Source of the DNA: Bdellovibrionota bacterium FG-2 | Lineage (GTDB): Bacteria; Bdellovibrionota; UBA1018 | Assembly (NCBI GenBank): GCA_051382305.1 | Contig: JBBCAV010000153.1 | Location: forward strand, 6,216 to 70,215 | Length of the DNA: 64,000 nt | Direction: 5' to 3' | In this document: in pieces, positions 28,401-45,999 of the stretch | How positions within the stretch are numbered: the first letter of the stretch is position 1 | Layout: each line of letters opens with the position of its first letter | Made by a program: the position numbers and the translations under genes | Notes under the pieces: model-generated | The model's database searches: none | Told to the model about the DNA's origin: nothing | The model's input: only the letters and a program-made list of their open reading frames with translations

Positions 28401-28495
28401 AAGTTGCTCCTGATAGACGCTACGCATCTAGCGGGATTCGTTTGGGACGTTGAACCTACAAAGTAACTTTACTAAGAAGTCTTAGGAGGACTTAT

Positions 28496-29593
28496 ATGCA
28501 GATTATTTCAAATCGTTTAGCACTCGTTCTATCATTGGGTCTGCTGTTGGGAACAACTTCGCAGGCCCTAGCTGCGGCCCCTGAAGATGTCGCAATCGAT
28601 CCCATTACCGGGGACACCTTTGTAATCGAAAAAAGCCAGAATCCCCATGGTACTCTCTTGATCCTAAACGATCACGACGAAAATTTTAAACAAACCCTAG
28701 ACCTGCTTGATACCCCTTCAGATAACGCCAAGTTTGAAGTGAAGCTCAACGAATCAGGCAACTTAACCTACCTCGTCTCCGTAGACGGTTTGTGGATGAT
28801 GGGAAGCGTAAAGAAGACCGACAAAGGTTGGGCTAAGACTTCTCTTCGCAAAGCGATCAGTGGCCAAGGCGAAGCCCAAGGCTTAGCCGCTCTTCCAGAT
28901 GGCCGCGTCGGGGTCACCGTGAGTTCTAACGAAGCGCCCGATGGCGAAATTCTCTTGGTAAACACCCCTGTTCAAACAGGCTCAAATTACCAGGTCATTG
29001 AAAAAATTCCTGCCGCTGTCATCGAAAACAGTGTCAATCAAGTCGTGGCTGAAATGGCCGCAAAACCAGAATCCGAAAACACAGGATCCGGCCACGGATT
29101 GGGATTTGCGGCTGGCGTTGAAGCCGGAGTCGGAATTGCTTATCGTCGCCATTTTGAAAACAAATGGGGCATGCAACTCGCCGGGATCGCCTTTGGTAGC
29201 AGCTCCTCCGTGAACGCAAACTTTGGCGCCACGATTCTACGCACGCTGGCCAAGACCCAGATCGTTCGGTTTTACGCCCTTGCCGGGGTCAGCGCTTTTT
29301 ATAGCGGCAATAACAACCAAACCTACGCGCCTTGCCCTATAAGCTATGATCCCTACGGCAATCCCATCAAGGATCCTAATTCAACCTGCGGAAACGAACC
29401 TGCGACGAGCACCTGGAACAATAACTGGATGTTAAACTTCGGCATGGGTATAGGGATTGAATTCACGATCGCTAAGACCATCGGCCTAGCCATCGAACTT
29501 CCTGTCACCGTGTCGTTCCAAACGGAGCAAGGTAACCTCAAGTTCAATTATGTTTACCCGATTCCAAGCGCCGCACTCATTTACTATTTCTAA
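28496..29593 (+). CDS. outer-membrane beta-barrel-like secreted protein
   Basis: Signal peptide ...TSQALAAAP. Gly/aromatic-rich C-terminal region ending ...LIYYF. Good RBS aggagg. Confidence 0.5.
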   Translation: MQIISNRLALVLSLGLLLGTTSQALAAAPEDVAIDPITGDTFVIEKSQNPHGTLLILNDHDENFKQTLDLLDTPSDNAKFEVKLNESGNLTYLVSVDGLWMMGSVKKTDKGWAKTSLRKAISGQGEAQGLAALPDGRVGVTVSSNEAPDGEILLVNTPVQTGSNYQVIEKIPAAVIENSVNQVVAEMAAKPESENTGSGHGLGFAAGVEAGVGIAYRRHFENKWGMQLAGIAFGSSSSVNANFGATILRTLAKTQIVRFYALAGVSAFYSGNNNQTYAPCPISYDPYGNPIKDPNSTCGNEPATSTWNNNWMLNFGMGIGIEFTIAKTIGLAIELPVTVSFQTEQGNLKFNYVYPIPSAALIYYF

Positions 29594-30716
29594 GACTGTA
29601 GTAGTGGGGATGTCCGGCGGAGTTGATTCCGCCGTGGCATCCCTTCTGCTTAAACAGCAGGGCTACAACGTCATTGGGCTGTTCATCAAAAGTTGGAATG
29701 AGAAAGATCCTGATGGCAGTTGCACCTCTGCGCGTGACTTCAGCGACCTCGAGCGAATTTGCGCAAAACTTCAAATCCCCTACACTTCCGTCGATCTCGT
29801 CAAAGACTACTGGGATCGTGTTTTTTCAAACTTCTTAGCCGAAATCAAAGCAGGCTTTACACCCAACCCCGACATCTTGTGTAATCGCGAAATCAAATTC
29901 GATGTATTCTTGGAAAAAGCGCGCGAACTCGGCGCAGACTTCTTCGCCACCGGTCATTATTGCAGACTCGAGCACGACACTCACGGCAGCCCCACCCTCC
30001 TCAAAGGTTTGGATACAAACAAGGACCAAAGCTATTTTCTTCACGCCGTAAAAGGCGAAGCGCTAAGAAACGTCCTCTTCCCACTGGGCGCGATGACCAA
30101 ACCCGAAATCCGTAAAATCGCAGAAGCCGCCGGAATCTCAGTGTTTGCCAAAAAAGGGAGCACCGGCATTTGCTTTATTGGCGAGCGCCGGTTTCGCCCT
30201 TTTTTGAAGCAATACCTTTCGGCAAATGAAGGTGAAATTCGCACCTTAGATGAAAAGCGCGTAGGCACTCACATGGGGAGTGCCTACTTCACGCTGGGCC
30301 AACGTAAAGGTCTGGGCTTAGGCGGCGAAGGCGAGCCATGGTTTATCGTTAAAAAAGACACTGTGAGAAACATCCTTTATGTAGCTCGCGGCGACGATCA
30401 TCCCGCGCTTTATGCGAAGACCCTTTTTGCGGAGAATCCGACATGGATTTCTGGTGTGGCACCCGGCGAGAATCCCAAAGCCCCCTATCGCTGCTGGGCC
30501 AAAATCCGGTATCGGCAAGCGGATCAGGCGTGCACGATCACGGCTCACGGATCTGAGGGCGGCTTGCGAGTGGATTTTGATGAACCCCAGCGCGCGATTG
30601 CTCCCGGCCAGTTTGCCGTCTTTTACCAAGGCGATGTGTGCTTAGGTGGTGCAGTTATTCGTGGAGTGGGGGATCCTGAGCCTTTGCCTGAGCCTTTGCC
30701 TGAGCTTTTGCCTTAG
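29550..30716 (+). CDS. mnmA: tRNA-specific 2-thiouridylase MnmA with C-terminal PEPL repeat tail
   Basis: PP-loop VVVGMSGGVDSAV, catalytic region GICFIGER. Start is ambiguous between ATG 29550 and GTG 29604. Confidence 0.85.
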   Translation: MFTRFQAPHSFTISKTVVVGMSGGVDSAVASLLLKQQGYNVIGLFIKSWNEKDPDGSCTSARDFSDLERICAKLQIPYTSVDLVKDYWDRVFSNFLAEIKAGFTPNPDILCNREIKFDVFLEKARELGADFFATGHYCRLEHDTHGSPTLLKGLDTNKDQSYFLHAVKGEALRNVLFPLGAMTKPEIRKIAEAAGISVFAKKGSTGICFIGERRFRPFLKQYLSANEGEIRTLDEKRVGTHMGSAYFTLGQRKGLGLGGEGEPWFIVKKDTVRNILYVARGDDHPALYAKTLFAENPTWISGVAPGENPKAPYRCWAKIRYRQADQACTITAHGSEGGLRVDFDEPQRAIAPGQFAVFYQGDVCLGGAVIRGVGDPEPLPEPLPELLP

Positions 30717-31218
30717 ATTCCGCCCGGACACTCGCCGCAATTGTCCTTCTTGATTGCTTTTGTTGATCCGCCAAAAGAAAGCTCTGATAAAAAGTATTTC
30801 CCTCATTAATTCTTTCAACTTTTCTAGACTGCTCTATGGCCACGCTCCGATCTTTTTCTAAACCAACAAACAGTTTTTGCGCGGCAATTTGGGGCCTAAA
30901 ATCCTCAGTGAAGGGACGCTCCATCTCGGCGACTAGAATCTGTTTTGCGGCGTTCTCAGACGCTGCATTCTTTGCCCTGACCGCAATGCGATGGGCTAAG
31001 CGCACGCATTCCAATCGATAGCTAGCGGGCATCGATGTCTCGCGTTTCAATACGGCACTCAGCGCACCGAGATAACTGATCGGATTCTCGCTAATTGCTT
31101 TGAATTCATCGCTGCGTAAAGCCAATGACATCATCGTCCGCCGCTGGCGAATCTTCAGCGAAGCCCCCACCCTCCGTCCACGTTTCTTGCCCACAGAGGG
31201 ATCGCTATCGGGAGACAA
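30655..31218 (-). CDS. hypothetical protein with C-terminal KAQA repeats
   Basis: Protein-like 187-aa ORF. Its C-terminus is encoded antisense to the mnmA tail repeat. Confidence 0.35.
   Translation of the reverse strand: MSPDSDPSVGKKRGRRVGASLKIRQRRTMMSLALRSDEFKAISENPISYLGALSAVLKRETSMPASYRLECVRLAHRIAVRAKNAASENAAKQILVAEMERPFTEDFRPQIAAQKLFVGLEKDRSVAIEQSRKVERINEGNTFYQSFLLADQQKQSRRTIAASVRAESKAKAQAKAQAKAQDPPLHE
30676..30713. repeat. 12-bp tandem repeat (cctgagcctttg x3) coding PEPL on + and KAQA on -
   Basis: Read directly from the sequence. Confidence 0.7.
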
Positions 31219-31285
31219 GAGTTTGCCGCGATCGCGTCACAACAGTCTGAACGTCGACATCTAGTTAGAAAGTCTTAATCGGAAC

Positions 31286-31828
31286 TCACCTGGACTTCAG
31301 TGCTTCTTGCATTTGGTCATAGCGTAACAATTTTTCCCGATCAGCCGACGCATCCCTTAATTTTCCGATCAAGCGAACCAGTGTTTTTCCTTCCGAAGAT
31401 GATAGTTCGGCTGATTTTAACTTGAGCATTTCAAGACAGTCTCGAAAATCAGATTCCGATAACCGAGACAATTTCAACTGAAGGAAAAGCATCACGCTCG
31501 GACGATAAATCTTTGCCTGTCCCTGCTGAATTAGAACGAGATGATTCTTGAAATCCGGAATTTTTTGCAGAAAAAAGGCAGCGGCCCCATTCACGGTTTC
31601 AATGGGTAACCCTAACTCCTCGCAAATCGTCATGATCTTTAAACTCTGATCATTCGTCATGGCCTCGACTGGAACAAAATCGATATCAGTCGTCGTGCGA
31701 TAGGAGTGCCCAAGATACGGCAAGACCGTTCCTCCTAAGAGCACCCACTCCCCGCTTAGCCGCCCAGAAGCCAGCTTCAAGAATCGCTTTAGCAGTTTCT
31801 CATCAAGACTCTTCACCACAGGGGTCAC
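31286..31828 (-). CDS. AbiEii-like minimal nucleotidyltransferase (putative toxin)
   Basis: VLLGGTVLPYLGHSYRTTTDIDFV matches the pol-beta NTase hG[GS]...DhDh motif and the AbiEii N-terminal consensus. Confidence 0.55.
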   Translation of the reverse strand: MTPVVKSLDEKLLKRFLKLASGRLSGEWVLLGGTVLPYLGHSYRTTTDIDFVPVEAMTNDQSLKIMTICEELGLPIETVNGAAAFFLQKIPDFKNHLVLIQQGQAKIYRPSVMLFLQLKLSRLSESDFRDCLEMLKLKSAELSSSEGKTLVRLIGKLRDASADREKLLRYDQMQEALKSR

Positions 31829-32349
31829 AAGTACTCCGAAATCTTCGCCAAGGCCAAGCGCCGCAATTTAACCACGCGCCCCGATCGTACCCGTGCCATA
31901 AACTCGGCCTGCTGGTTTCGTCCGAAATGGGCTCGGAAAAAGGAAGGATAATGCGTCGAAAGCGCCAAAATCAACGCCGCAACTGCTTCGGTTTTTCGCG
32001 CCTCACATCCACCAGCGCTCGCTTCAATAATCGCGGTGCGGAGCTCTCGAACCAAGTCTTCTTTATTACCTTGATTGCCCCTATGCCTTGGCCCCAGAGC
32101 GCTCGACTGCGCTCGCATCAGAGGCAAACCCAATTCGATGAGTCGGTCCCAATCACAAGTTTTTAGCTGAAGCTCTACCGAAAAGCCTAAGACTCGGCCC
32201 AACTTCTCGAGGGTATCTATCGAAGGATTTGAAGTCCCAGCCTCCAACTGTTGAAGCGTCGGGAGCGCAATCTGGGCCTGAGCCGCAAGCTCAACCTGGG
32301 TAAGGCCAAGGCATAAGCGTTGAGATCTAACATTTTCCAGAACAGACAT
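31825..32349 (-). CDS. XRE-family HTH protein with ~110-aa C-terminal domain (putative antitoxin/regulator)
   Basis: HTH LGLTQVELAAQAQIALPTLQQLEAGTSNPSIDTLEKL. Its stop overlaps the NTase start by 4 bp. Confidence 0.6.
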   Translation of the reverse strand: MSVLENVRSQRLCLGLTQVELAAQAQIALPTLQQLEAGTSNPSIDTLEKLGRVLGFSVELQLKTCDWDRLIELGLPLMRAQSSALGPRHRGNQGNKEDLVRELRTAIIEASAGGCEARKTEAVAALILALSTHYPSFFRAHFGRNQQAEFMARVRSGRVVKLRRLALAKISEYL

Positions 32350-32391
32350 ACATCTATTAAACCATGTATGCTAAACTATGTCAACTTCGCC

Positions 32392-32985
32392 CTATGCCGC
32401 CTTCACTTGGTTACGACCCGAAGCCTTTGCCACATACAGAGCCTTATCCGCCTCGGTTAGAAGCTTCTCGGACTCGTACCCCAAGCGCTCCGTAGAGGCG
32501 ACACCCACACTGATAGAGCACCCGCCAAAGCGCTCTACTTGCCTTCGGACCCGTTCAGCAAGGGTTAAGAGATCCTGCTGCGAGCCTTCGGCGGCAATCA
32601 CGAACTCCTCACCCCCAAAGCGACCTACCACGCAACCTGCAGACTCAAAATTCTTTAGAAGCCCTGCCACTCGTTTAAGCACCACATCTCCTTCGACATG
32701 CCCTAGCGTGTCGTTGATCTTTTTAAAATGATCAATATCCACGATGATCATTCCGCAGTTTTCAGTTTCCTTCTCACACGTATCCAAAATCGTTTTCCAT
32801 TTAGCGAAGAAGGCCTTTCTTCTGAGGAGTCCCGTTAGCTCATCGACGTTACACACGCCTTCTAAGTTTTGAATAACCGAAAGCACCCGAGAGTAGGATG
32901 CCTCTAACTCGGTGACTTCACCATGGAGGTTAGAGAGGAGTTGGCGAATCTCGAAGAGGCTTGTTTCTAGGTGCTTTCGGTCCAT
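32392..32985 (-). CDS. diguanylate cyclase (GGDEF domain, GGEEF active site), no sensor domain
   Basis: RFGGEEF, DIDHFKKINDTLGH. Short coiled-coil N-terminus. Confidence 0.8.
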   Translation of the reverse strand: MDRKHLETSLFEIRQLLSNLHGEVTELEASYSRVLSVIQNLEGVCNVDELTGLLRRKAFFAKWKTILDTCEKETENCGMIIVDIDHFKKINDTLGHVEGDVVLKRVAGLLKNFESAGCVVGRFGGEEFVIAAEGSQQDLLTLAERVRRQVERFGGCSISVGVASTERLGYESEKLLTEADKALYVAKASGRNQVKAA

Positions 32986-33154
32986 ATTGTGTTTTCTCCT
33001 TGCACACTAAGTAGAGCACGCGCAGTGCCATTAAATTTAGCTGCAAAAACGCGAGGTTACTTAGCGTTCGGTCCAAGTTACCCTGTGGTACCAAAAGACA
33101 CACTGATGCGCGCGCGACCTCTTTTTCTACTGGACAACGCTGTGCAGCCACCAT

Positions 33155-33763
33155 ATGTTGCACCGCATGAAAACAATAATGCTGATACTCGCCCTGAGCT
33201 TAACAAGCCTAATGCAATTACACAGTGCCCTTGCAAACGATCGCGAAGATCTCACCCCCGGTTTGCTCGATGAGATTCAAGCCGTAAAAGATGGCATGAA
33301 AAAAACGCGAGTCTACTTGAGTCGCTCACTACACATCAATCGTACCGACTATATCGGAGAATCCGACAGCAGTGTCGTCGGCGGCGGACTTGAGAAGACC
33401 ATTAAAGACAAACGTCGCAATGAAGACATTCCCAGAAACGCAAGAGGCCAAATCATCGAAATCAAAGACGAGCACGTCTGGATCGCTTTCGACAAAGATT
33501 GCGAGAGCAGAGAATGCGCTTTTCATTTTCAATTTCGCGCGCGCGAAAACGATACAAGCCGATTCCCCAAGGAAAAATTCATCTTCAACAACGCCCCGAA
33601 GAATCCGGATTTTAGAACCGTGACTTATCGAGCAACCAGTTTTTGGTTCGGGATTTTGAGAACCTCCGAAATCATTCATCTCGAAGTCAAATACGACGAA
33701 ATTCACGAGTTTATCACCGAGTACAAAACTCACCCTGGCGTGGATGCCCCGGACGAGCGCTAA
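33155..33763 (+). CDS. secreted hypothetical protein
   Basis: Signal peptide MKTIMLILALSLTSLMQLHSALA. Confidence 0.45.
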   Translation: MLHRMKTIMLILALSLTSLMQLHSALANDREDLTPGLLDEIQAVKDGMKKTRVYLSRSLHINRTDYIGESDSSVVGGGLEKTIKDKRRNEDIPRNARGQIIEIKDEHVWIAFDKDCESRECAFHFQFRARENDTSRFPKEKFIFNNAPKNPDFRTVTYRATSFWFGILRTSEIIHLEVKYDEIHEFITEYKTHPGVDAPDER

Positions 33764-35286
33764 GCGATCTTCTTAACCGGCACCACCACGGCGCTCGGGG
33801 ACCCACCTACTTTTCTAAAGTCCGAAGCCGTGATGCGAAACTTGCGCAACATACGCAGAAAATTACTGCGATCAATTTTCGATTCTTGAGAGGCCTTACT
33901 CACATTCCCATGGTGACGGGTGAGCATCCCCGTCAGAAACTCTTTTTCGAAATTCTCACTCCAGCGTTTCTTAAGATCTCGATATACGCCCAGCTGAGAC
34001 GTGGATTTTACCGGGAGATTTAGCGTCTGAGCAACTACTCGCAGCTCAGACGTCTTAGGAAGAGCAAGCAATCTCGCGCCAACAGTCTCCCCACCCTGGA
34101 ATACAAGCGCCACCCGCTCAATCACGTTTTGTAATTCACGAACGTTACCCGGCCACGCGTAGCCCTCTAGCGCCGCGCGCGCTTCTTCGCTAAACCCAGA
34201 GAAGACTTTTCCGCGCGCGGAAAACGCGTCCCTTGAAAACTGCTCGGCAAACGGGACGATATCAGAGCGCCTTTCACGAAGCGCCGGGAGCTGTAAAACG
34301 ACGCGACTCAAACGATGAAACAGATCCTCGCGAAACCCGCCTTCCGCCACTCGCTTGTTGAGATCCACGTGAGTTGCGGCAATCACCCGAACATCTGTCT
34401 TTTCGTCTTGCGTGGCGCCCACGCGCCTAAACACTTTTTCTTGAAGTACGCGCAGGAGTTTAGCTTGAAGTTTTGGATCCATTTCACCAATTTCATCTAA
34501 GAAAAGTGTGCCGCCTTTTGCGATTTCAAAAAGGCCGCGCTTTAGCGCCACGGCGCCCGTGAAGGCGCCCTTCTCATGACCAAAGAGTTCAGACTCCAAA
34601 AGCTGCTCATTAAAATTTGCACAGTTCACGGCTACCCAAGGTCCCTGCGCACGCGCCGAATCAGAATGGGTTCGACGCGCAATCCCCTCCTTACCAGTTC
34701 CACTCTCTCCCAAGATCAGGACGGTAGGTTCTTCTACGCCCTGCCTTAAGGCCTCGCGCCGCAAAACACTGAGCCACTCATTGACCTTGGACATCGACGG
34801 ATCTTTTGAAGCAATCCAGCTCTTCACCAATCGGGCGCCCCCGCCCTGCGCCTCAGCTCTAACGGCACGCGCTTCCAGCCTTGCGAGCAGGTCTTCATTT
34901 TCGCGTTCTAAAAAGACTTCGGCCTGCGCTCTTTTAACAGCGATGCTCAGCTCATCTAAATCAAAGGGCTTCTCCAAGTAATCCACGGCACCTAACTTGA
35001 GTGCCGAGATCGCCACATCTTTTTCGCCATGCCCAGTGATCATAATGACCCGAAGCCGCGGAAATATCTCTTTGGCCCAAGCCATCAAAGCCAGCCCATC
35101 TTTGCCGGGCATTTTTAGATCCGTGATCAATACCCCAAAACCAGGGGTCAAGGCTTTTTCGGCCTCTTCGGCCCCATGTGCGGTTACGACCTCAAACCCC
35201 TCACGCTCCAAACGCGACTTCAGGAGTTTTCTAATCGTTTCTTCATCATCCACAACCAGCACTTTTTGCGGCATCTGATTTTTCAC
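33760..35286 (-). CDS. sigma-54-dependent response regulator (NtrC family: REC, AAA+, Fis HTH)
   Basis: REC VLVVDDEETIRK, Walker A GESGTGKE, GAFTGA motif, C-terminal HTH. Confidence 0.85.
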   Translation of the reverse strand: MKNQMPQKVLVVDDEETIRKLLKSRLEREGFEVVTAHGAEEAEKALTPGFGVLITDLKMPGKDGLALMAWAKEIFPRLRVIMITGHGEKDVAISALKLGAVDYLEKPFDLDELSIAVKRAQAEVFLERENEDLLARLEARAVRAEAQGGGARLVKSWIASKDPSMSKVNEWLSVLRREALRQGVEEPTVLILGESGTGKEGIARRTHSDSARAQGPWVAVNCANFNEQLLESELFGHEKGAFTGAVALKRGLFEIAKGGTLFLDEIGEMDPKLQAKLLRVLQEKVFRRVGATQDEKTDVRVIAATHVDLNKRVAEGGFREDLFHRLSRVVLQLPALRERRSDIVPFAEQFSRDAFSARGKVFSGFSEEARAALEGYAWPGNVRELQNVIERVALVFQGGETVGARLLALPKTSELRVVAQTLNLPVKSTSQLGVYRDLKKRWSENFEKEFLTGMLTRHHGNVSKASQESKIDRSNFLRMLRKFRITASDFRKVGGSPSAVVVPVKKIA

Positions 35287-36503
35287 CCTAATTCCCTAAA
35301 ATCTCTTGGTATGCGAACTAAAAACACCGTCCCCTTGCCCATTTCACTTTCAACGCGGATCGAACCATGAAGCTTTGAAATCATCCCATAACTTAGACTC
35401 AAACCTAGCCCCATGCCCTTACCAACTTCTTTTGTCGTAAAAAAGGGATTGAAAGCCTTGGATTTGGTGCGCTCATTCATGCCGGCGCCGTCATCACTAA
35501 ACTGGACCTCAACAAACTCACCGTTAATTCGCGTCGTAATTGAAACTTTCCCAGAGCCCCGCCCTGTCGCCTCAATCGCATCCCGCGCATTAGTGGCAAG
35601 ATTAATAAACACCTGCTCCAACTGAAGCGCGTTAGCATAGACCGGAGGAAGCTCCTGGCCGTAGCAACGGGTGACTTGAATTCCCCGCGTGACGAACTGT
35701 CGGGCTAGCATTTTAAGGGCTTCTTCAATACGATCATGGACATTCGTGAATTCGTGGCTCTCCGTTGATTTTCGTGTAAATGCGCGCAGATAATCAATGA
35801 TTTTAGCCATCTTGTCAGCGTTGCTGATCACTTCTTGCAAACCGTCTTGGGTTTGCTTGAAGCCCTCTTGATTCGCAATCAAGGGCAGCGCAATCGCCTG
35901 CAGCTCCTGAGCATAACCTCTGATCCCCTGTAACGGTTGATTAAGCTCGTGTGCGATGCCTGCCGCAAGTTCTCCCAGTGCCGCCATCTTGCCCGATTGC
36001 ACCAGCGTTTCTTGCATCGAGTGAAGCTCCGCATTTTGCTTTTCGAGCTGAAAGTAGGCGTTTCTTAGTTCCGCGTGTTTTGTGATGAGCTCCCGCTCCA
36101 TGCGCTTTTTCTCGCTCACATCTCGAAAAATCGCGAGCGACAGCTTGGAGTGACTCCCCTGCACACGCCGGACACTCACATCGACCAACGTTACATACCC
36201 ATCTTTTCTCACCACGGCGATATCTTCATACGTGCCCGCTATCTTAAACGTTTCTCGCGCCAGCGGCCTTGCTCGTTCAGGGATTCGGTGTTTTGTGGGA
36301 TCGGGAATCAAGAGCTGAATGGATTCCCCAATAAGTTCTTCTTTGAGATACCCCGTCAGCTCCTCGCCGGCCTTATTGAGCGCATCGACTTTGCCCGTGG
36401 GAAGCACTGTTAAAATTGCGTCCGAAGCCTGGTCAAATAGGATTTGATAATTATTTTCGGACTCCGCTTCTGCTATGCGAAGATGTTTTCGATTAGTGGG
36501 CAT
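35283..36503 (-). CDS. PAS-domain sensor histidine kinase
   Basis: HisKA H-box HELNQPLQGIRGY, HATPase G-boxes (GMGLGLSLSYG). Confidence 0.8.
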   Translation of the reverse strand: MPTNRKHLRIAEAESENNYQILFDQASDAILTVLPTGKVDALNKAGEELTGYLKEELIGESIQLLIPDPTKHRIPERARPLARETFKIAGTYEDIAVVRKDGYVTLVDVSVRRVQGSHSKLSLAIFRDVSEKKRMERELITKHAELRNAYFQLEKQNAELHSMQETLVQSGKMAALGELAAGIAHELNQPLQGIRGYAQELQAIALPLIANQEGFKQTQDGLQEVISNADKMAKIIDYLRAFTRKSTESHEFTNVHDRIEEALKMLARQFVTRGIQVTRCYGQELPPVYANALQLEQVFINLATNARDAIEATGRGSGKVSITTRINGEFVEVQFSDDGAGMNERTKSKAFNPFFTTKEVGKGMGLGLSLSYGMISKLHGSIRVESEMGKGTVFLVRIPRDFRELG

Positions 36504-37380
36504 GCAAAAACGCGCTGGCCCTTTCTATTTCTTTTCCCAATTCCTCTTCGAGGACGGGAATTTCCTCCGGCTTAATTTTCAAGGGGGCCAACATATCGGG
36601 CGTGATGTCGCCAGCAGAGAAGTCCCCGGATTTTCCGATTTTATTCTTCACACAAAGCGCGTTGGCTAGCCTCACCATGTGGATCACGGGCTTGGCCGAA
36701 GCTAAAACGCTATCCATTTTTGAAACATCAAAATGATGATAGCGAATCGCGAGACGAATAACCTGAGGCAACCCCCATTTTGAGGCAATCACCTCGCCCA
36801 AGAAAGAGTGTCCTGGAAGTTCAAATTCTTTTTCGACCTCCACGAAGGAGCATTCACGTTTGAGGGTTTCCTTGATGATTCCCTGTAGGCGTTCAGGATC
36901 AATTTTATGGAGCACAAGTTTCCCAATGTCGTGAAGCAGTCCACAGGTAAACGCCTCTTCAGGCTTGGGATGTTTAATGCGTTTCGCGAGCATCTCGGCG
37001 CCCACGGCGGTTGCAAGTGCGTGCCGCCAAAAATCCATCATGGGAAAATCTTCTAACTCGATATCTGGAAAAACCGAGAAAACGGAGAGCCCCAACACGA
37101 GTTGCGCAAGCGTATTGAAACCCAAGAAGGCCAACGCCCGCTGAACATCGGTCACCCCCCCTGGAATGGCATAATACGAGGAATTCACAAGCCGCAGGAT
37201 CTTGGCCGTCAGGACCTGGTCCTTTTTAAGCACCATGGCAATGTCCGAGCTTGAAGAACTGGGATCGTTAATGAGCTCGTTGACGCACATCGCAACAACC
37301 GGAAGAGTTGGAATATCTTGAAGTTTTTCAAGCAGAGCCGAGTATTCGGATTGAGTTTTTTTCGTATTGGGTGTGGCCAT
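36493..37380 (-). CDS. HDOD domain signalling protein
   Basis: Conserved HD-related residues (LLHDIGKLVL). First gene of the HDOD, histidine-kinase, response-regulator block. Confidence 0.8.
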   Translation of the reverse strand: MATPNTKKTQSEYSALLEKLQDIPTLPVVAMCVNELINDPSSSSSDIAMVLKKDQVLTAKILRLVNSSYYAIPGGVTDVQRALAFLGFNTLAQLVLGLSVFSVFPDIELEDFPMMDFWRHALATAVGAEMLAKRIKHPKPEEAFTCGLLHDIGKLVLHKIDPERLQGIIKETLKRECSFVEVEKEFELPGHSFLGEVIASKWGLPQVIRLAIRYHHFDVSKMDSVLASAKPVIHMVRLANALCVKNKIGKSGDFSAGDITPDMLAPLKIKPEEIPVLEEELGKEIERASAFLHAH

Positions 37381-37469
37381 AGGCTCTCTTAGGTAGTTAT
37401 CGGAAGACGGGGGCGAGAAATTGAAGGAAAAGGGAGAAGAGTAGAGGCAGGAGGGAAAACATCAAACCT

Positions 37470-37497
37470 TTGACGCCAACAAAAAACAACGTTATAG
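37470..37497 (+). promoter_or_regulatory. sigma-70-like promoter for tRNA-Val (TTGACG -N16- TTATAG)
   Basis: -35 at 37470..37475 and -10 at 37492..37497, about 22 nt before the tRNA 5' end. Confidence 0.4.
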
Positions 37498-37519
37498 GTT
37501 TGTTTCCTACACGAAATGT

Positions 37520-37594
<75 letters not shown>

Positions 37595-37732
37595 TTAAAA
37601 TTCAATCATGTAACCAGAGAGAAGGAATGCACAAGAACGCCCCGTGGGACAGTGTTAATTCTACCAGATCTGACGCTCGGCGTCAAGTGAGTGGCCAATG
37701 CGCCGAGCCTCCCAATCGGTACGGTTTTAGCA

Positions 37733-38429
37733 CTATTCGCAACCCACCTCTTGCATGACGAATTCAATCGCCTTGCCACCTTTGGATTCCCTTCGGTCTA
37801 AAATCTTGAACTTAGCGCCGGGAAGAAAAATTATTTCACGCTCCTCTGGGTGAACGGAGATCTTTTCAATATTGCGTCCGCATCGAGAGGAAATAATAAA
37901 ACGGTGTGTGCACTTAAAGCCAGATCCGATCGAGGTACTTGTATAGCCTTCATAGGTCACAATGTCCCCCACTTGATGATGCTTCAGAGCGGCATCGGGC
38001 AAATCAGCCCCACGTTCAACTGGGCCATCTTTCCAAAACGAGGCCCACTACTTTGATATAGGGCTCTGCGGATTTAAGTTCGGTGCACCCACTTCTTAGT
38101 GCGTTGTTGACTTGCATGAAGATGCTCCCGGTATAGCTACGAATGGCGGCCACCTCGGCGTAAGTAAGATGGTATTGTCGGACCAACTCTTTGCCACCCG
38201 TGCTGGTTTTTGCAAAGAAGTAATTATCATTCGTGGCCAAGAGGGGGCGTCCATAGAAAGTCTCGAGCAGGGTCTCCTCGACCTGCTCTTCAGTGTCTGG
38301 GCCCAGATTCAAGGCTACCGATTTAACCTGATCGCCGTGCGTCCAGCTCACTGTTTTGAGTGAAGACGGCTCTAGTGTCTTTATAGAAAAATCAAACTCA
38401 GTTTTCAACTTGGGGTTATGATCAATCAT
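37733..38429 (-). pseudogene. R-S-E type mono-ADP-ribosyltransferase toxin domain, split by a frameshift (ORFs 38429..38016 and 38002..37733)
   Basis: N-terminal part AAIRSYTGSIFMQVNNALR (catalytic Arg motif). Downstream part YEGYTSTS (STS motif) and PEEREIIFLPGAKFKI (E-x-E). Confidence 0.6.
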
Positions 38430-40007
38430 TTAGTTGTCTAAAATGACCGGAAGCAAATCGTCCTTCAAAATATAGATTACCTCGGATCGCTCTGGCGGCG
38501 TGATGTGAAACAACACGGATTGAGCCCAGTCGCGAACAAAAGGTAACGGTGCTTTTCCGTAAACCAGCAGACCGGTCCCCGCTTCACTCTCTGCTAGGAG
38601 GTTTGCGACAATTGATTTGAGCCAGCTTTGGGCTTCGGGGCTATCGACTTTTCCGAAACGCCCCGCAAGCGGATTTAGGGCTTGAGTCATTTGCCTGCCG
38701 TCGGGGTTGAAAAGATGCATAATCTTCTCAGTCGTGTTCGTGAGCGTTGCCGTAAGCATCTTCACTTCGTCAGGAGTCCGGCAAAGATTATTGAGATCTG
38801 CCGTCGGCGGAACCACAGGCGCAGAAGCAAGGTCGGGGATTTCAATCAATAAATCACGATAGCATTGAATATTCGTAGCAGCGACATTTTCGAGAATGGC
38901 GGCAACCTGGATGGGGAATTTATTTCGGATGTGCTCAGATTTGAGAAGTGACACAATGACTTCGGCGTCTTGAGTGAGCTTGAGCGCGCCCGGCTTTTGA
39001 AGTTTGAGCAAAAACGCTTCTGTTTGGCTGGCGGAGAGTTGCCCATTCTTGAAGTCGCGCAGATTGGGTACAGCGGTTAGCCAGTCCTTATCTTGGGATG
39101 GATATCGGCAAAGCAACCATGAAGAATACTTTCGGAGCTAGAGAGAGGTGTCTGTCCCTTAGTTGTTACGCTTTGGTTGGCACAGTCTGGTTTCTTAAGG
39201 GGCGTTTCATCTGCAATTTGCAAAGAGCCCGTAAAACAAGCTTTTTCGATTTGATAAAGGACCGGTGGCCTAGCCTTGTCATCTAAGGAGAAGTTTCCAT
39301 TCGGTTTGGAGTGATAGAGGGGATAAGGAAAAATATATTCTCGATCATTAACCCACAGGGTGTCTTTATATCCGCTCACAGCGGTGTATTGAAAGAAGTT
39401 TCCGTTTACAATATCGAAGTTTCCCTGAGACAGGTTTGCCTCCTTGGGAAACTTCTTGACTGGATTTATCAAATTATCAAAATCCAGTGCGTAGCTTTCT
39501 TGGGCCGTTTTACCGAGAATTATGAAGTTTTTGCTTTGATTGAGCGTAGCGCTACCCTGCGCGGGGATAGAATAGTTTTGGATTAACGCTCCAGTCGGAA
39601 GAGAGCAATGTAGGATAGAAGAGGGGGTTTGAACGACAAAACCGGGCGTGGGTGTCAGGATCTTAACGTGCTCACTCGTACCTCCGCAGGCTTTGATAAG
39701 CTCAGCTTCTGGGCGTGTGGTCTCTATTGCCCGCTGGGGCTGAACTGGCGCATGAAATGTCAGTCGCAATTGACTTTTGAGTTTGGGATTCGAAAAGAAC
39801 CAACTTACCCAATGAAGAGCAAAGCGCTAGTCGAGTTCCATCGTTTGAAATGGAGCGAAAGGTTGAATTTTTAGGAAACGGAATTGCCACAAGGTTTTGA
39901 ACGCATTTTTCGGGAAGTGATGACGCGGTTGCAGATTCAGTAAAGAAGAGCGGCAACAAGCTTCCTAATACATTAATGAACACAGAGGTGTGCCTGCACA
40001 TTCCCAT
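38430..40007 (-). pseudogene. large secreted protein of unknown function upstream of the ART gene, broken by two frameshifts
   Basis: Three overlapping ORFs in different frames (40007..39702, 39769..39077, 39116..38430). N-terminal signal-peptide-like SVFINVLGSLLPLFFTESATA. Ends with TAA immediately followed in-frame by the ATG of the ART ORF. Confidence 0.45.
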
Positions 40008-40162
40008 GTTGGTTTTATCGGCAATTGCGGGCTTTTAATATTTAATAAAGGTTAAAGGTGTCGGTGATTGCGTCAATAAAGTAGCGGTTTTTTCTACCCC
40101 CCATCTAGTATGTTTGGAATCCAAACCGCTCCTACTCACTGGCAGAACTCAAGGACCGCCCC

Positions 40163-41155
40163 TCAATACACCCGCTCCGGCGGCAAATACTCAATCATCG
40201 CGCCCTGCCCGACATTCACGGTAAACGTCCACCCCGTATGAACATATCCATCCGCCTCAACCAAGCCCGTGGGCGGATTGGGAAACCGCGAAATTTTCCG
40301 CCATGACGAATCCACGGCTGAATCAAACTCATCGATTCCTGAGCTTTGCATTCTGCGGATTTCAATGAGCCCCCCCTCTCGATCCAAAATCACATCCACC
40401 ACGGTCGAATACTCTCCCGGCCGCACTTGCCTTCGGTAGCCAATGGAGCGAATCCGAGACTGCCAAACAGGACCAATGGCTTCATACAAACGAGCGTAAA
40501 AAGTATAAAAAATAGATTCCTTTGTATTCAAAAGATTCTCAGCCCCCTCCGGCAAATCCTTTTCACGTAGCGCCTGATCGCCCCCCTCCGAGCCGGGCTG
40601 CACTTGTTGAGCTTGCGATTTGCGCCCGTCTTTTCCTACTTTTTTGCGATCGGGAGCAAATTTCATGGGAATCCCCAAATTCCCCAGCTTTACTTTGGAT
40701 CGCGACTTAGCGGCTTCGTTTTGAGCTTTGGGCAGTGCATTTTCCTGGGGCTGCGCCTGCTGAAAAGGAACTGCGGGCTTAGGAATCACATTCGTTTGCT
40801 TTGCCCGTTGTTCTTTTTCCACCCGAACATTACGTGCGGATTCATAGCGTGCGTCCTTAGGCGCCTCCTTTTCGCTGGGCGCTTTGGGATCTTTATCGAG
40901 GAGAAACCCCGTAGGTTTCTTCTCTTGGTCACGCCATTGCTTGCGGATCGCCTCGAGTTTATTCATATCAATCTGCTTAACTTCGACAGGCATCGGACGA
41001 GCAGGCGAACTCCACTGAACCTTCACCCACATAAAAAGCAGATGAAAAATCAAAGCCGCGAGCAAAGCAAGCCACACCCCGGAGCGTCGCCATGGAGAAG
41101 GCTGATCCATACTCACTGAAGAAGTAAATGAGGAGGTGATAGCAGACGAAGACAT
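40163..41155 (-). CDS. TonB family energy transducer-like protein
   Basis: N-terminal TM segment, Pro/Lys/Gln-rich linker, C-terminal TonB-C-like region (EYSTVVDVILDREGGLIEIRRMQSSGIDEFDSA). Confidence 0.5.
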   Translation of the reverse strand: MSSSAITSSFTSSVSMDQPSPWRRSGVWLALLAALIFHLLFMWVKVQWSSPARPMPVEVKQIDMNKLEAIRKQWRDQEKKPTGFLLDKDPKAPSEKEAPKDARYESARNVRVEKEQRAKQTNVIPKPAVPFQQAQPQENALPKAQNEAAKSRSKVKLGNLGIPMKFAPDRKKVGKDGRKSQAQQVQPGSEGGDQALREKDLPEGAENLLNTKESIFYTFYARLYEAIGPVWQSRIRSIGYRRQVRPGEYSTVVDVILDREGGLIEIRRMQSSGIDEFDSAVDSSWRKISRFPNPPTGLVEADGYVHTGWTFTVNVGQGAMIEYLPPERVY

Positions 41156-41403
41156 AACTCAAACCTAACTTGAGTTGACCTGCAATCCAAGCACCTTGAA
41201 GGTGATTCCAAAATGGAACCATTTTGCGCCCCCAGAACGCCTTTGGAACCACCTACTAGTTGCGCACAGCTCAATAGAAACACTCAGACACAGATCTCAA
41301 AAGAAGAGGTCAAAAAAAACATGGCCTCAAAAGGCCTTAATTATAGGGCAACATCAAAAATCACAAAAACAACTGCCCACAAAACCTCCCAAACCCGGCC
41401 AAC

Positions 41404-41419
41404 TGGCACAAGCATTGCT
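41404..41419 (+). promoter_or_regulatory. sigma-54 promoter-like element TGGCAC-N5-TTGCT
   Basis: Exact -24/-12 consensus (GG 41405-06, GC 41417-18) in an intergenic region. Confidence 0.35.
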
Positions 41420-41436
41420 AACTGCTAAATCCGTTC

Positions 41437-41545
41437 GGCTGCTTTCACCACTGAGAAAAATCTTTTCCTTTCCAAAAAAAGGAACATTCCCCTCCATAGA
41501 GATTTAGCTCAACCAAGGGTGGTGAAAGCAGCCATTCGTTTTTTT
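41437..41545 (+). ncRNA. candidate small RNA / structured element: 15-bp perfect inverted repeat with 67-nt loop followed by T7
   Basis: ggctgctttcaccac (41437..41451) pairs with gtggtgaaagcagcc (41519..41533). ttttttt at 41539..41545. Confidence 0.3.
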
Positions 41546-41563
41546 GCGGATTAAATCTCAACT

Positions 41564-42445
41564 TTAAGACATTGCGCGGATCAAGAACCCGACGAGCATA
41601 ACGGCTAAGAAAACCAACCCCAGCTTCGCGTCTGAGCGCGCCGCAAAAACCCCCAGCGACTCCAGAAAACTGTTTTCCAAAAATGAGCGATTCAATGCCC
41701 GCGGCGTGTCCACGACTTGCTGCAACTGTTGAAATTCGCTTTCTTTTTGCGCAAAAGACGGAAAAAACTTTTCAATCGCAAAGTAAAGCTCGCGGGCAAC
41801 ACCCAGCGATTTTCTACAAGAAGCGCACGCCATTAGGTGATTTTGCACAAAAAGCTGCTCAGATTTTTTCTCAAATTCATCATCCAAAAAACGCTGCGTC
41901 CATGGCCTCAGCGTATCGTATTCAGGGCATTTGGCTCCGGTTTGCGAATTCCCAACAGGATAACGCATTGCAGCCCCAAGCCCCGCCTCTCCCAACTGTA
42001 CCCGCGCACGCCAAGCTTGCTCCTGCACCCATTCCACATCCTCATCAAAAACTCGAGCCAATCTCTGATAGGACCAGTTTCCACGATGCAGCGCAACAAG
42101 CAGAAAGCGATGTTCTGGAAACAAACGATAAAATGGATGCCCCAGCAAATGCAAATTCTCTACTAAATTCGCAGGCATCCCCTCGCGAGTCGCACGTCCA
42201 ATGAGGGCCGACGCAGCGCGCTCAAGCGTCCTCTCTGAGGTAAGCTCAAGCGACGAAACTGCACTGAGGGTCTCCGTTACAATCCGAACCGAACGCACAG
42301 GATCCGCCCAAAGTGCGACTCCTAGCTCAGTAAAAGTGCGAATTTCCTCACGATCAAGACGCGACATGGATTTCACAATACCTCTGTACCCCTTGACAGC
42401 CCTCACATTTTTGAGAGAGGCTGCCCTTGCATTGAAGTTTAACAC
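41564..42445 (-). CDS. membrane anti-sigma factor-like protein with zinc-finger (CxxC) and an N-terminal sigma region-4-like HTH
   Basis: HLMACASCRKSL ZAS-like motif, C-terminal TM. The N-terminus resembles sigma-70 region 4. Confidence 0.4.
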   Translation of the reverse strand: MLNFNARAASLKNVRAVKGYRGIVKSMSRLDREEIRTFTELGVALWADPVRSVRIVTETLSAVSSLELTSERTLERAASALIGRATREGMPANLVENLHLLGHPFYRLFPEHRFLLVALHRGNWSYQRLARVFDEDVEWVQEQAWRARVQLGEAGLGAAMRYPVGNSQTGAKCPEYDTLRPWTQRFLDDEFEKKSEQLFVQNHLMACASCRKSLGVARELYFAIEKFFPSFAQKESEFQQLQQVVDTPRALNRSFLENSFLESLGVFAARSDAKLGLVFLAVMLVGFLIRAMS

Positions 42446-42451
42446 AATGTT

Positions 42452-43711
42452 TTGTGGAGGGGAAATTCAGTGCAACTAAAAAGTTTCGCCTTTTATGCGT
42501 GCTTGGTTTTGTTGGCTTTTGAGAGTGCGCCTTCGCTTGCTCGCACCCCTAGCACCCCCATTGGGCCAATTCGCGAATCTGTGCTGAGCCTGGATGGTTT
42601 CACTTTGGCACTCAAGCATTTTTCTAACCCAGGAAAACAGCCTCTTCTTCTCATTCACGGCCTTGCGCAAAATGATCGCATCTGGGACTCACCCATTGGG
42701 CGCTATCGATTTGCACAAATCCTTCATGCTCAAGGCTATGATGTGTGGGTTGGAAACTTAAGAGGCGCGGGGACCGAAGGTTTTCGAAGCGACACGCCTC
42801 CTGGACCACACCACTGGACAGTTGATGACTATGCCATCAATGACATGCCAGCGCTGGTAGACAAGGTGTACAGAGAAACCGGTCAAAAACCTTGGCTCAT
42901 CGGCCACAGCTTGGCGGCATGGGTTTTCACGGGTTACCTTGGCGGAATTGACTACACGCTTGATGGACAAGTCAGCGCTGACGATGAAAAAAGTGCGGTC
43001 CGGCAAGCCACGGTGGCAGGAGTCATCACGATTGCAGGAGTCTACAATCTGGCTTGGGAGCATTCGGTAGAGAATCTCCTCAAAGATCCGATTCGCTCCG
43101 AAGAAGACTTCTATCACTCAAACTATGAACTGGAACTTCTGGCCAAGGATCGGCCGCTTTTCTGGATCATTCCTAGGCTCCCGGGGCTTCCACTCGGGTG
43201 GATTGGCACCGTTTTGGGGCTACAATTTGATCGGATTCCGCTGATCGGAAAAAAACTTACGCAAGCTTACTCGGGGCTGCAGTCGCAGATCATTAAAACG
43301 CCTGTGTTCAGCATGTTCTACTCGCCGTCGAACACGAATGCCGAGATGGTCAAGAAACATGTCGCCGATGGATTTGAAGACCTGGGCCCCCATCTGGTTG
43401 AGCAACTTGCGAACGCCGTGAATAATCATGAAACCACGAGCTATTATCACTTAGAGCGCCCCCTGCAAGCTTATCGCTACAGCGATGTTTTGAAGTCGCT
43501 CAAACTCCCTATCCTCTTTATGGGCGGGGAAAAAGACCGGCTCGCCTCTACACATCAGATCTACAATGACGGGTATCTGAAGACCGCGAGCCTTGATAAG
43601 ATGTTCATCACCGTCCCCAATGCCGGACACCTCGATATTCTAACCGGGGAAAACTCCTCTGAAATCACGATCCCGGCTGTCGTGCGGTTTATCGAAGACC
43701 ACCAGCGGTAA
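42452..43711 (+). CDS. secreted alpha/beta hydrolase (lipase/esterase-like)
   Basis: Signal peptide, HGLAQND oxyanion region and nucleophile elbow GHSLAA. Confidence 0.6.
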   Translation: MWRGNSVQLKSFAFYACLVLLAFESAPSLARTPSTPIGPIRESVLSLDGFTLALKHFSNPGKQPLLLIHGLAQNDRIWDSPIGRYRFAQILHAQGYDVWVGNLRGAGTEGFRSDTPPGPHHWTVDDYAINDMPALVDKVYRETGQKPWLIGHSLAAWVFTGYLGGIDYTLDGQVSADDEKSAVRQATVAGVITIAGVYNLAWEHSVENLLKDPIRSEEDFYHSNYELELLAKDRPLFWIIPRLPGLPLGWIGTVLGLQFDRIPLIGKKLTQAYSGLQSQIIKTPVFSMFYSPSNTNAEMVKKHVADGFEDLGPHLVEQLANAVNNHETTSYYHLERPLQAYRYSDVLKSLKLPILFMGGEKDRLASTHQIYNDGYLKTASLDKMFITVPNAGHLDILTGENSSEITIPAVVRFIEDHQR

Positions 43712-43738
43712 GACTAATATTTGCAGCCCCTCTGAGGC

Positions 43739-44650
43739 ATGAACAAATTTATTTTTCCACACGGCCTAAGTCGGTGGATGTTTGTCTTGACGATTCTAAC
43801 GCTTTCTTGTGCCGAATTCATGGTTTCATGTAGCAGCAAAACTACGCCGCCCCTCCCCCAAGAGAGCCAACAGCCAGGTATAGCACCCACAACCATTCCG
43901 ACCGCTGAGCCGCCGGAAACTCCGACGGAAACTCCAACAAGCCCCTCACCAGTTCCTGACGCTCCTGGAACCGCGCCTTCACCAAGCGCTCAGCCAGCGC
44001 CGTTGCCATCCGCCATCCCAAGCCCTTCTCCGATTCCCACGCCCACTGAAACCGTCACTTGGTCCATTGTCTCTGAGAAAAAAGATTGTCCCTACCCCCT
44101 TTGTAAAGGCCGTGGGCTTTTTTGGATTGACAGCACGGGGCACTACTTTCAAGAACGCGAACAGGAGTCAGAGGACGACTTTAGGTTTCCCGATGCTCTG
44201 CGAGCGCAGGGCCGAATTACTCCCAGCGAACGGGTTGAGCTCTCAGCCATTGCGGACGTGGTGGCGGAGCAGAACTTTTCGCACTGGATGAGCTGCTCAC
44301 CGATGAGTCCCGTACCGGGAATGTCGAGCGTGACCCTTCAGATGTGGTTTACGGATTGGACACTTCAAACTATCTATAAAGTGGATGTCCAGAATGAAGA
44401 GGCCTGCCACGCAGGCAGCCTACCCAAGGCGCTGGCGCTTTACCGTGTGCTCGACACCTTGGTAAATAAATACTATATCATTCCTAGTAGTTACGAACCC
44501 TGTCGCGACAAAGCTTGTGGTGAACAATGTAAGATCTGCTCGCCCGATGATCCCACGTGTGAGGAGACAGCTGTCATAAAGCACTGTGACGCGCAAAAAC
44601 ACTGTGTGCCGGGGGTCGTGAGCTGCCCACCCGCAGCTATAAGTCACTGA
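43739..44650 (+). CDS. lipoprotein with Pro/Thr/Ser-rich linker and Cys-rich C-terminal domain
   Basis: Lipobox-like LSCAEFMVSCSS, then a long PT-rich linker. Confidence 0.5.
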   Translation: MNKFIFPHGLSRWMFVLTILTLSCAEFMVSCSSKTTPPLPQESQQPGIAPTTIPTAEPPETPTETPTSPSPVPDAPGTAPSPSAQPAPLPSAIPSPSPIPTPTETVTWSIVSEKKDCPYPLCKGRGLFWIDSTGHYFQEREQESEDDFRFPDALRAQGRITPSERVELSAIADVVAEQNFSHWMSCSPMSPVPGMSSVTLQMWFTDWTLQTIYKVDVQNEEACHAGSLPKALALYRVLDTLVNKYYIIPSSYEPCRDKACGEQCKICSPDDPTCEETAVIKHCDAQKHCVPGVVSCPPAAISH

Positions 44651-44747
44651 AAATACAACCAAAAATACTGCGGCCAAAACGCAATACTGTAATTGTCAAC
44701 TAATCAATTCCGAGCTATAATCATATTTGGGGGAACTAGATATCGCT

Positions 44748-45707
44748 ATGGGGATATCGCGACGCTCTTTTGCCACTGCCTTCGTTTCAGCATGGGCAAC
44801 ACTTGCCATGTGTTCGTGCGCCGTGGAGTTCTACAACGACCCCAACGCCGAGACGCCCGCAACTGCAGCCGCGACAGCCGATAACATCGAATCGCCCACT
44901 CCAAGTCCTTCGCCTTCGGCGTCGGCAACGCCATACGCTTCGCCTTCAGCGTTGCCGAGCCCGGCATCAACTGCTTGCGCTGACATCGCAGGGGACTGGG
45001 CTGGCCCATGCAGATCAAACTCCAAAACAATGGTCTTATACACGTTTAATTCAGACTGCAGTTATAGTGGATTCACCCAAAACTTCTCCGATGCCAACTG
45101 CGCTGTTGCGACGACGCAATCAGATGTAATCTCGGGCACCCTCGGCTTGGGAACCGAATCCTCGGGACAAAAGAGTCTAACACTTACTGAAACTAGCAGC
45201 CACTTCAGCCAAACTCTCTATTCTGCAATTGAAATTATCAATAACGAACTCTTCATGCAAACTGAGTCTGCTTCAGCCGTCTCATTGACCTCGCCACTTG
45301 TTATTTCATTTACTGACACCAGCCGAGGTTTAGGCCCAGCAATGACGGCGGCAAACCTTGCAGGAACGTGGATCATAAACACTTGCGCCTGGCGTGGGGC
45401 CTACTCTGCCTATGCCAAGGACATCTATACCTTTGACGCAAATGGCGCCGCCACCCTCACAATCAAGGCCTACTCCGATGCAGGTTGCACAAGCTTAACT
45501 TCAACAAACTCAGTCTACTCGGGGCATTACGCGCTCACTGATCTTGGAGGAAACAACTCAGGTGCCCAAGGCATCAACTTTAGTAACCCCGCGCTCACCG
45601 TTGACGGACACGGCTCAGACATTTTCGTCACCTTCTGGGGATCTGGGTTCATCGGATTCGATAGCACACGCGCCATTAACACCACGCCCTACTACACCAA
45701 ACAATAA
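44748..45707 (+). CDS. secreted or lipoprotein with Pro/Ser-rich linker, Thr/Ser-rich globular domain
   Basis: Signal peptide MGISRRSFATAFVSAWATLAMCSCA. Architecture similar to the preceding gene. Confidence 0.45.
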   Translation: MGISRRSFATAFVSAWATLAMCSCAVEFYNDPNAETPATAAATADNIESPTPSPSPSASATPYASPSALPSPASTACADIAGDWAGPCRSNSKTMVLYTFNSDCSYSGFTQNFSDANCAVATTQSDVISGTLGLGTESSGQKSLTLTETSSHFSQTLYSAIEIINNELFMQTESASAVSLTSPLVISFTDTSRGLGPAMTAANLAGTWIINTCAWRGAYSAYAKDIYTFDANGAATLTIKAYSDAGCTSLTSTNSVYSGHYALTDLGGNNSGAQGINFSNPALTVDGHGSDIFVTFWGSGFIGFDSTRAINTTPYYTKQ

Positions 45708-45999
45708 CCTCCACACATTCTGTTATTCTCCCCATGTTATGTGAAAAATCAAGCAAGGACTTTGCCCTAAATTGACTTTTTGTATTCTGTGATCTCAAAA
45801 TAGTTTCTGTTTTTACGGTTCTTTTCCCTTTTCTATCTGCTTCGACAATTTTAGCTGAACGACCTGTTATTCGTAGTCAAGGCCTTAGCCTCGCCACCAG
45901 TTGCAAAATTCGCTGTCTAAAAATCATGTGCCGCGCCACATACTGGGACTACGTGATGAGAAAATCCTCTCACGAGGGGGATAACGTAGTCACGGCAAA

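Follow-up and report, generated by a model that had tools for sequence, protein, structure and literature searches.

Probable remnant of a single exported ADP-ribosyltransferase gene beside a tRNA-Val gene of Bdellovibrionota bacterium FG-2

Is an interrupted ADP-ribosyltransferase (ART) locus beside a tRNA gene a two-component toxin of new architecture, or the debris of one gene? The question is raised by a 64,000-nucleotide stretch of DNA (here referred to as the window, to which all positions refer) from Bdellovibrionota bacterium FG-2 (GenBank assembly GCA_051382305.1, contig JBBCAV010000153.1), in which five open reading frame (ORF) pieces of 101, 230, 228, 137, and 89 aa run along the minus strand from position 40007 to 37733. 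The stop codon of the last piece lies 138 nt from a tRNA-Val(GAC) gene on the opposite strand (37520-37594, plus strand; found by ARAGORN and matched to Rfam RF00005 at 63.9 bits). FG-1 and FG-2 are metagenome-assembled genomes (MAGs) recovered from a ferruginous spring, and the Bdellovibrionota that they represent are magnetotactic and putatively predatory (PMC13200544). In the NCBI annotation of the 75-kb contig, the pieces are separate hypothetical proteins, for example MGK5087631.1, which corresponds to the 137-aa piece, and MGK5087633.1. An earlier reading of the letters alone (the sequence-only reading) saw in them a large signal-peptide protein and a stand-alone ART, both interrupted.

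We conclude, at a probability of roughly 80%, that the locus is a non-functional relic of a single gene for a Sec-exported multidomain protein of ~870 to 900 aa. FG-2 also holds intact tandem single-ORF paralogs, P0001 (894/902 aa) and P0002 (905 aa), on one other contig, and a partial relative, P0003, comes from FG-1. The joined frames of the whole locus match the intact 894-aa P0001 with E=2e-223 over 95% of the query (protein search, single match), and tblastn of P0001 on the window returns four collinear blocks in alternating frames. The window copy appears to be a diverged paralog of the intact FG-2 genes, ~50% identical to them in protein and 63 to 74% identical in DNA. Window pieces and paralogs all bear NCBI names from FG-2. 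On the available evidence (the tblastn blocks and the codon-level lesions described below), the locus is disrupted and a pseudogene, as had been proposed.

Lesions were mapped by codon-level comparison with P0001, P0002, and P0003 and by protein alignment; there are four, and the window copy has no uninterrupted coding sequence for an active ART. From the 5' end and all on the minus strand, fragment 1 (39750-40007; ORF list and tblastn) holds the start codon, a signal-peptide-like N-terminus, a conserved LPEKC motif, and the first propeller strands. The signal-peptide-like stretch MGMCRHTSVFINVLGSLLPLFFTESATA (40007-39924), judged by inspection only, has a basic n-region, ~14 hydrophobic residues, and A-T-A, and in this sense the large signal-peptide protein reported beside tRNA-Val on the opposite strand is borne out. 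At lesion 1 (39713-39749), 37 nt stand against 348 nt in P0001 (residues 80-195, ~three propeller blades), a net loss of ~311 nt that changes the frame. Fragment 2 (39119-39712) resumes with the C-terminal beta-propeller blades, corresponding to P0001 residues ~196-391 (tblastn, 47% identity), and runs to lesion 2 (39117-39118), where GG in place of a full codon gives a 1-nt loss and a frame change outside any homopolymer. Fragment 3 (38433-39116) encodes an all-helical middle domain without a recognisable fold relative (P0001 residues 396-620) and is closed by lesion 3, an in-frame TAA at 38430-38432.

Fragment 4 (38049-38429; tblastn and protein alignment) comprises a small beta domain and the N-terminal ART helices, including the YTGSIFMQVNNALR helix at 38135-38094; its ORF as listed (137 aa, 38016-38429) continues out of frame to a TGA. 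Lesion 4, at 38048, has one base against 63 nt in P0001 coding LSRALNKLPKYKTADPSLLPR, and this 62-nt deletion changes the frame and takes out the LNKLP helix end, which is conserved also in Tre1, a type VI secretion system (T6SS) effector of Serratia proteamaculans (PDB 6DRE, 6DRH). Fragment 5 (37733-38047), ending in a TAG at 37735-37733, is the catalytic half of the ART domain (66% identity to P0001 residues 789-894 by tblastn; HMMER match to Tre1 chain 6DRE_B). The sequence-only reading counted two interruptions in the upstream part and one in the ART part, and three frame changes are indeed present (39749-39713, 39118-39117, and 38048), but two of them are deletions (~311 and 62 nt) and not single-base slips. 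The frame change in the ART part, moreover, comes after the YTG..N..LR helix but before the catalytic Arg, and hence outside the stretch from the Arg motif to the STS motif in which it had been placed.

The joined ART frames match Pfam PF03496 (ADPrib_exo_Tox) at 31.7 bits (cut-off 23.4; E=1.2e-7), so the profile search that had been suggested as a check comes out in its favor; P0001 scores 35.7 bits against the same family, above the cut-off, and the Tre1 PDB chain is matched at E=7e-8 by the window copy and at E=4e-13 by P0001 (HMMER). Together with the whole-locus match to P0001, these results indicate that the ART pattern is real and not due to chance. Alignment with Tre1 (6DRE_B, 6DRH_B) places the catalytic Arg in GPVERG of the window copy (R at 38014-38012) and in GPVQRG of P0001, and likewise locates the STS motif (37939-37931, minus strand) and the ExE motif as E-R-E (37843-37835, minus strand); the aligned window/Tre1 pairs are GPVERG/ETYRG, YTSTS/FMSTS, and EEREIIF/NEAEVLY. 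The strings on which the R-S-E identification had been based, AAIRSYTGSIFMQVNNALR, YEGYTSTS, and EEREIIFLPGAKF, are all in the window, and the identification holds, with one correction: AAIRSYTGSIFMQVNNALR (AAIRSYTG..NNALR), offered as the R motif, matches the GAIYGYT..YTALNPALR helix of Tre1, upstream of the catalytic Arg. The fold was assessed on a model of the intact paralog P0001 and not on the window copy; in that prediction, residues 681-894 superpose on Tre1 6DRH_F with a template modeling (TM) score of 0.83 and a root-mean-square deviation of 2.7 Å. By its motifs and profile matches, the locus thus encodes an ART of the R-S-ExE type, a new member of a known enzyme class, and arginine would be its likely substrate residue, given the ExE motif and the analogy to Tre1.

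The reported TAA followed in-frame by ATG is present (TAA at 38432-38430), and what it means decides whether one gene or two once stood here. The codon aligned to the TAA is CAA (Gln) in P0001 and P0003 and CAC (His) in P0002, and the ATG aligns to CCC, GTA, and CTC in the intact relatives, a variable hydrophobic position. Since P0001, P0002, and P0003 are single ORFs through the site, the TAA and ATG do not mark a gene boundary; the pair is best read as a nonsense change (CAA-to-TAA) inside one ancestral gene, beside a coincidental Met codon, and the stand-alone ART as the C-terminal domain of a single ancestral polypeptide. We therefore give hardly any credence to a functional split system in which an upstream signal-peptide protein and an ART restarted at the ATG act as two components. 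A TAA-ATG pair is a classic translational-coupling arrangement, and the break does coincide with the border between the helical domain and the small beta domain. Yet each half is damaged: upstream, the frame changes twice and ~three propeller blades are gone, and in the ART half, a 62-nt deletion and a change of frame precede the catalytic Arg. Every intact relative, moreover, reads through, so neither the stand-alone ART nor the two-component toxin of the sequence-only reading survives.

Could the gene instead be intact in the organism, the lesions being chimeric junctions from multiple displacement amplification (MDA) or products of single-cell-mode assembly of a paralogous family? The provenance of the data invites this explanation: the library was made from ~100 micromanipulated (sorted) cells by MDA, sequenced on MiSeq (Illumina 2x150), assembled with SPAdes --sc, and binned by tetranucleotide composition, FG-2 being 84.8% complete (PMC13200544). 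Furthermore, Logan contigs break within the adjacent tRNA-Val, where the assembly graph is evidently not simple, and two of the lesions are deletions, a type of change that MDA chimeras can yield. Against this, four artefacts of three kinds would be needed (two deletions, a 1-nt indel outside a homopolymer, and a base substitution), the reads are Illumina, which makes homopolymer errors unlikely, and a DNA identity of 63 to 74% shows that the copy is neither a collapse nor a chimera of the paralogs. Two assemblers also agree over 8.2 kb: at window positions 37537-45764, the Logan assembly, made from the same sequencing run, shows 100% identity, all lesions included. This agreement rules out an assembler quirk and not a library artefact, because both assemblies draw on the same MDA reads and are not independent. 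Several points weigh against decay and are to be kept in view: all of the sequence derives from one MDA library of ~100 cells, and MDA chimeras can create deletions; an exhaustive HMMER search found no ortholog of the window copy in any other genome, leaving its ancestral state unconfirmed; the deletions are defined relative to paralogs and not to an ancestor; and the assignment of the paralog contigs to FG-2 comes from tetranucleotide binning, the library containing FG-1 as well. Nevertheless, four lesions of three kinds, Illumina chemistry, and 26 to 37% DNA divergence from the paralogs make real decay much likelier, and we consider an intact gene quite improbable.

A third possibility, that the remnant is a silent cassette retained for recombination with the intact paralogs, in the manner of orphan toxin modules at Rhs and CdiA loci, strikes us as more improbable still. 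The family is modular, its scaffold recurring with another C-terminus in four proteins described below (P0086, P0100, P0118, and P0124), and one genome carries several paralogs. Orphan modules, however, are usually devoid of the 5' region of the gene, but the window copy retains its start codon and signal peptide; its toxin domain bears a deletion, and ~50% divergence from the intact copies over the whole length makes recent exchange unlikely. The remnant is, in our reading, a product of ordinary gene decay, an ordinary pseudogene from an unusual, lineage-restricted family. The separate hypothetical proteins of the NCBI annotation would be better merged into a single entry and marked as a pseudogene. 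The earlier suggestion to look for an intact version was rewarded in part: intact paralogs exist in the same MAG, but the gene is missing from the orthologous position in the closest relatives.

How did the gene come to lie next to tRNA-Val? The locus had been described as inserted there; the adjacency is real, whereas insertion is not supported. The flanks hold housekeeping or regulatory genes, among which no integrase or mobility gene was found. Within 37400-40300, the tRNA 3' end is not repeated, and a search that included inverted repeats gave only chance-like short repeats. On the left side, the closest available relative (HDOD protein 91% identical) keeps the HDOD gene and tRNA-Val(GAC), and its contig (L007) diverges just past the tRNA 3' end, leading to LplA-B and DnaE, neither of which is encoded in the window. 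On the right side, a contig with the TonB-like gene from that relative's metagenome (L010) is collinear with positions 54375 to 40163 of the window and then continues into unrelated genes. The remnant (37733-40007) thus fills exactly the interval between two synteny breakpoints, the left one at the tRNA-Val 3' end. It is not present at the corresponding site in the closest relative, but both flanks differ there, and the arrangement in FG-1 is different again; when the HDOD and TonB-like neighbors were traced in the closest relatives, none had the gene at this position. Because both flanks differ, the site fits a rearrangement junction, or insertion plus rearrangement, rather than a simple insertion or a clean island.

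The left breakpoint coincides with the split in the Logan assembly, which falls inside tRNA-Val: one contig (L001) ends at 37547 and the next (L003) starts at 37537, with an 11-nt overlap. The split suggests a branch of the assembly graph at the tRNA, caused either by another copy of tRNA-Val or by the tRNA of FG-1, present in the same library, and the join from HDOD gene through tRNA to remnant rests on the SPAdes contig. The remnant had also been called AT-richer than its surroundings, which is weakly true: its guanine-plus-cytosine content is 0.477, versus a window mean of 0.509 (standard deviation 0.015, equal-sized windows), and the intact paralogs are likewise at 0.48 to 0.49.

Beyond the remnant, the left flank (28472-37460) is collinear with a contig of the closest relative (L006/L007). 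It carries a signaling cluster of an HDOD protein, a PAS histidine kinase, a sigma-54 response regulator, and a GGDEF protein, which recurs in a more distant relative (L008). To the right (40163-42445), a TonB_2-domain protein, named cell envelope integrity protein TolA by NCBI, adjoins a 293-aa protein with a weak zf-HC2 anti-sigma-like match. The closest relative keeps this pair, whereas in FG-1 the orientation of the TonB-like gene to its neighbor is reversed.

The remnant, a dead gene, is in itself of little importance. More interesting is the family to which it belongs, in which a Tre1-like ART is combined with a signal peptide, a beta-propeller, and a helical domain. An exhaustive HMMER search of 1.84 billion representatives recovered as full-length members only P0001, P0002, and P0003 (partial, FG-1), plus the pieces of the window, whereas for the ART domain by itself the same set contains 1140 relatives at E<=1e-3. 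The complete layout (signal peptide, beta-propeller, helical domain, small beta domain, ART) was found there only in FG-1 and FG-2, and a scan of one genome per GTDB species returned the FG-1 locus only. An AlphaFold2 model of P0001, built from a 13-sequence alignment (mean predicted local distance difference test score [pLDDT], 80.1), is divided into a disordered signal peptide region (residues 1-26), an all-beta domain that matches WD40 propellers (28-356), a low-confidence linker (365-390), a helical domain with no fold match (392-598), a small beta domain (606-677), and the ART domain (681-894). The combination of domains is new, and the helical domain is without a relative of solved structure.

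In FG-2, P0001 lies ~5 kb downstream of P0002 and is followed, with an 8-nt overlap of its stop, by the start of a third paralog at the contig end; the genome holds at least two intact tandem relatives, and probably a third. The cluster (L002 2144-12785, on the same contig as L012) runs from P0002 through a 135-aa ORF, a 1121-aa ORF, and a divergent 406-aa ORF to P0001. The 135-aa signal-peptide ORF overlaps the stop of P0002 by 8 nt, and none of these three ORFs belongs to a Pfam or PADLOC family. The PADLOC defense-system models gave no matches at the paralog locus, and the divergent upstream genes of the two paralogs, when compared, proved unrelated.

Two further features of the family are visible in its sequences. 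A propeller-less short form, P0008 (565 aa), consists of the helical domain and an ART that ends in EEVDCE, and its N-terminus resembles a lipoprotein signal (LGVCGG); it is encoded at L013 4439-6136 (GCA_013558375.1, contig JACCDG011329171.1), in an assembly with very many contigs. The family C-terminus is a strictly conserved EV[GD]CE-stop (window 37733-37750), and an invariant Cys occurs in S.CGR[ND]I (37880-37900). This conserved Cys pair would fit a putative disulfide in an exported protein.

Part of the same architecture is found with other C-termini. Four metagenomic proteins of 813 to 970 aa (P0086, P0100, P0118, and P0124) match P0001 only over residues ~390-677; they have N-terminal Pfam WD40 propellers and an unrelated C-terminal domain with conserved EAHS[DE]GD and NTSC. 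That domain has no sequence match in PDB or Pfam and could be a His/Cys hydrolase. Shared by both groups is a scaffold made up of a signal peptide, a beta-propeller, a helical domain with LLxFQKPG, a P-[VI]-I..ID junction, and a small beta domain. A common scaffold that carries either an ART or an unrelated C-terminus is the pattern of a polymorphic effector scaffold.

How, then, would the intact proteins be delivered, and what spares the producer? Neither PAAR, Rhs, nor any other known delivery domain was detected by Pfam, P0001 and P0002 giving ART families only. The statement in the sequence-only reading that no immunity gene follows is correct for the window locus, where the ORF list and Pfam show no immunity-like gene in the 138 nt before tRNA-Val, and it can be extended to intact relatives: the gene next to P0001 is another paralog and not an immunity gene, P0002 is followed by the 135-aa signal-peptide ORF without a Pfam or PADLOC match, and no co-directional gene lies downstream of P0008. 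The lack of a delivery domain and of an immunity gene, together with the signal peptide, argues against a toxin-immunity pair of the Tre1 T6SS style. The intact protein may instead be exported through Sec, after which the propeller and helical region would bind a target cell and deliver the C-terminal domain, and the ART domain would use NAD+ to mono-ADP-ribosylate arginine on a target protein. Because a predatory lifestyle has been proposed for the FG bacteria (PMC13200544), the target would most plausibly lie in prey bacteria, and an enzyme exported before it acts might need no immunity gene.

From this scheme follows a broader and speculative proposal, which we hold to be unlikely as a whole: the intact FG-1 and FG-2 proteins may be a new class of Sec-exported, propeller-led polymorphic effectors that poison the prey of predatory magnetotactic Bdellovibrionota, the scaffold being a delivery device for a Tre1-like ART or an unrelated His/Cys domain without an immunity gene, and the window copy a discarded member of a fast-turnover arsenal. 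Should the intact paralogs prove to be toxins directed at prey, they would be candidate predation effectors in a lineage with no cultured member and would illustrate how an ART toxin can do without a cognate immunity gene.

Among known systems, the resemblance to the C2, iota, and VIP2 toxins put forward by the sequence-only reading extends to the R-S-ExE chemistry and to membership in Pfam PF03496. A binary ART toxin of that kind was considered and rejected: no binary-toxin chain is among the PDB sequence matches, the Pfam matches are to two ART families only, and no separate binding or translocation component was found beside the window locus, whose neighbors by Pfam are the TonB-like, anti-sigma-like, and HDOD proteins. 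The nearest solved structure is instead Tre1, followed by weaker similarity, in the catalytic half, to Vis of Vibrio splendidus (3e-5), SpvB (0.016), XopAI (0.02), and ExoT (2e-4). Vis, SpvB, XopAI, and ExoT/ExoS are type III secretion system effectors or free-standing toxins against eukaryotic hosts, and their N-terminal regions are not shared. Membership in the XopAI family itself was rejected, at 27 to 29 bits against an NCBIfam cut-off of 300.

Polymorphic toxins offer a second comparison. Rhs/YD, CdiA/FHA, PAAR, LXG, and MAFB, the customary delivery modules of such toxins, were not detected here by Pfam, and no cognate immunity gene was found downstream of the window copy or of the intact relatives. 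The resemblance lies in the combination of one scaffold with either an ART (P0001, P0002, P0003, and the window copy) or another C-terminus (P0086, P0100, P0118, and P0124).

Tre1 remains the best match of the ART domain in both sequence and structure, at 21 to 26% identity. It ADP-ribosylates arginine, namely, R174 of FtsZ (PMC8120803). Tre1, a cytoplasmic T6SS cargo, is linked to PAAR and has next to it the bifunctional DraG-like immunity protein Tri1, whereas neither PAAR nor an adjacent immunity or ADP-ribosylhydrolase (ARH) gene was found in the window or beside the intact paralogs. Unlike Tre1, the family described here has a Sec-type signal peptide, a beta-propeller, and a helical scaffold. 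Common to the two are the YT..N.ALR helix, the LNKLP segment, the catalytic Arg in x-R-G, the STS motif, and ExE.

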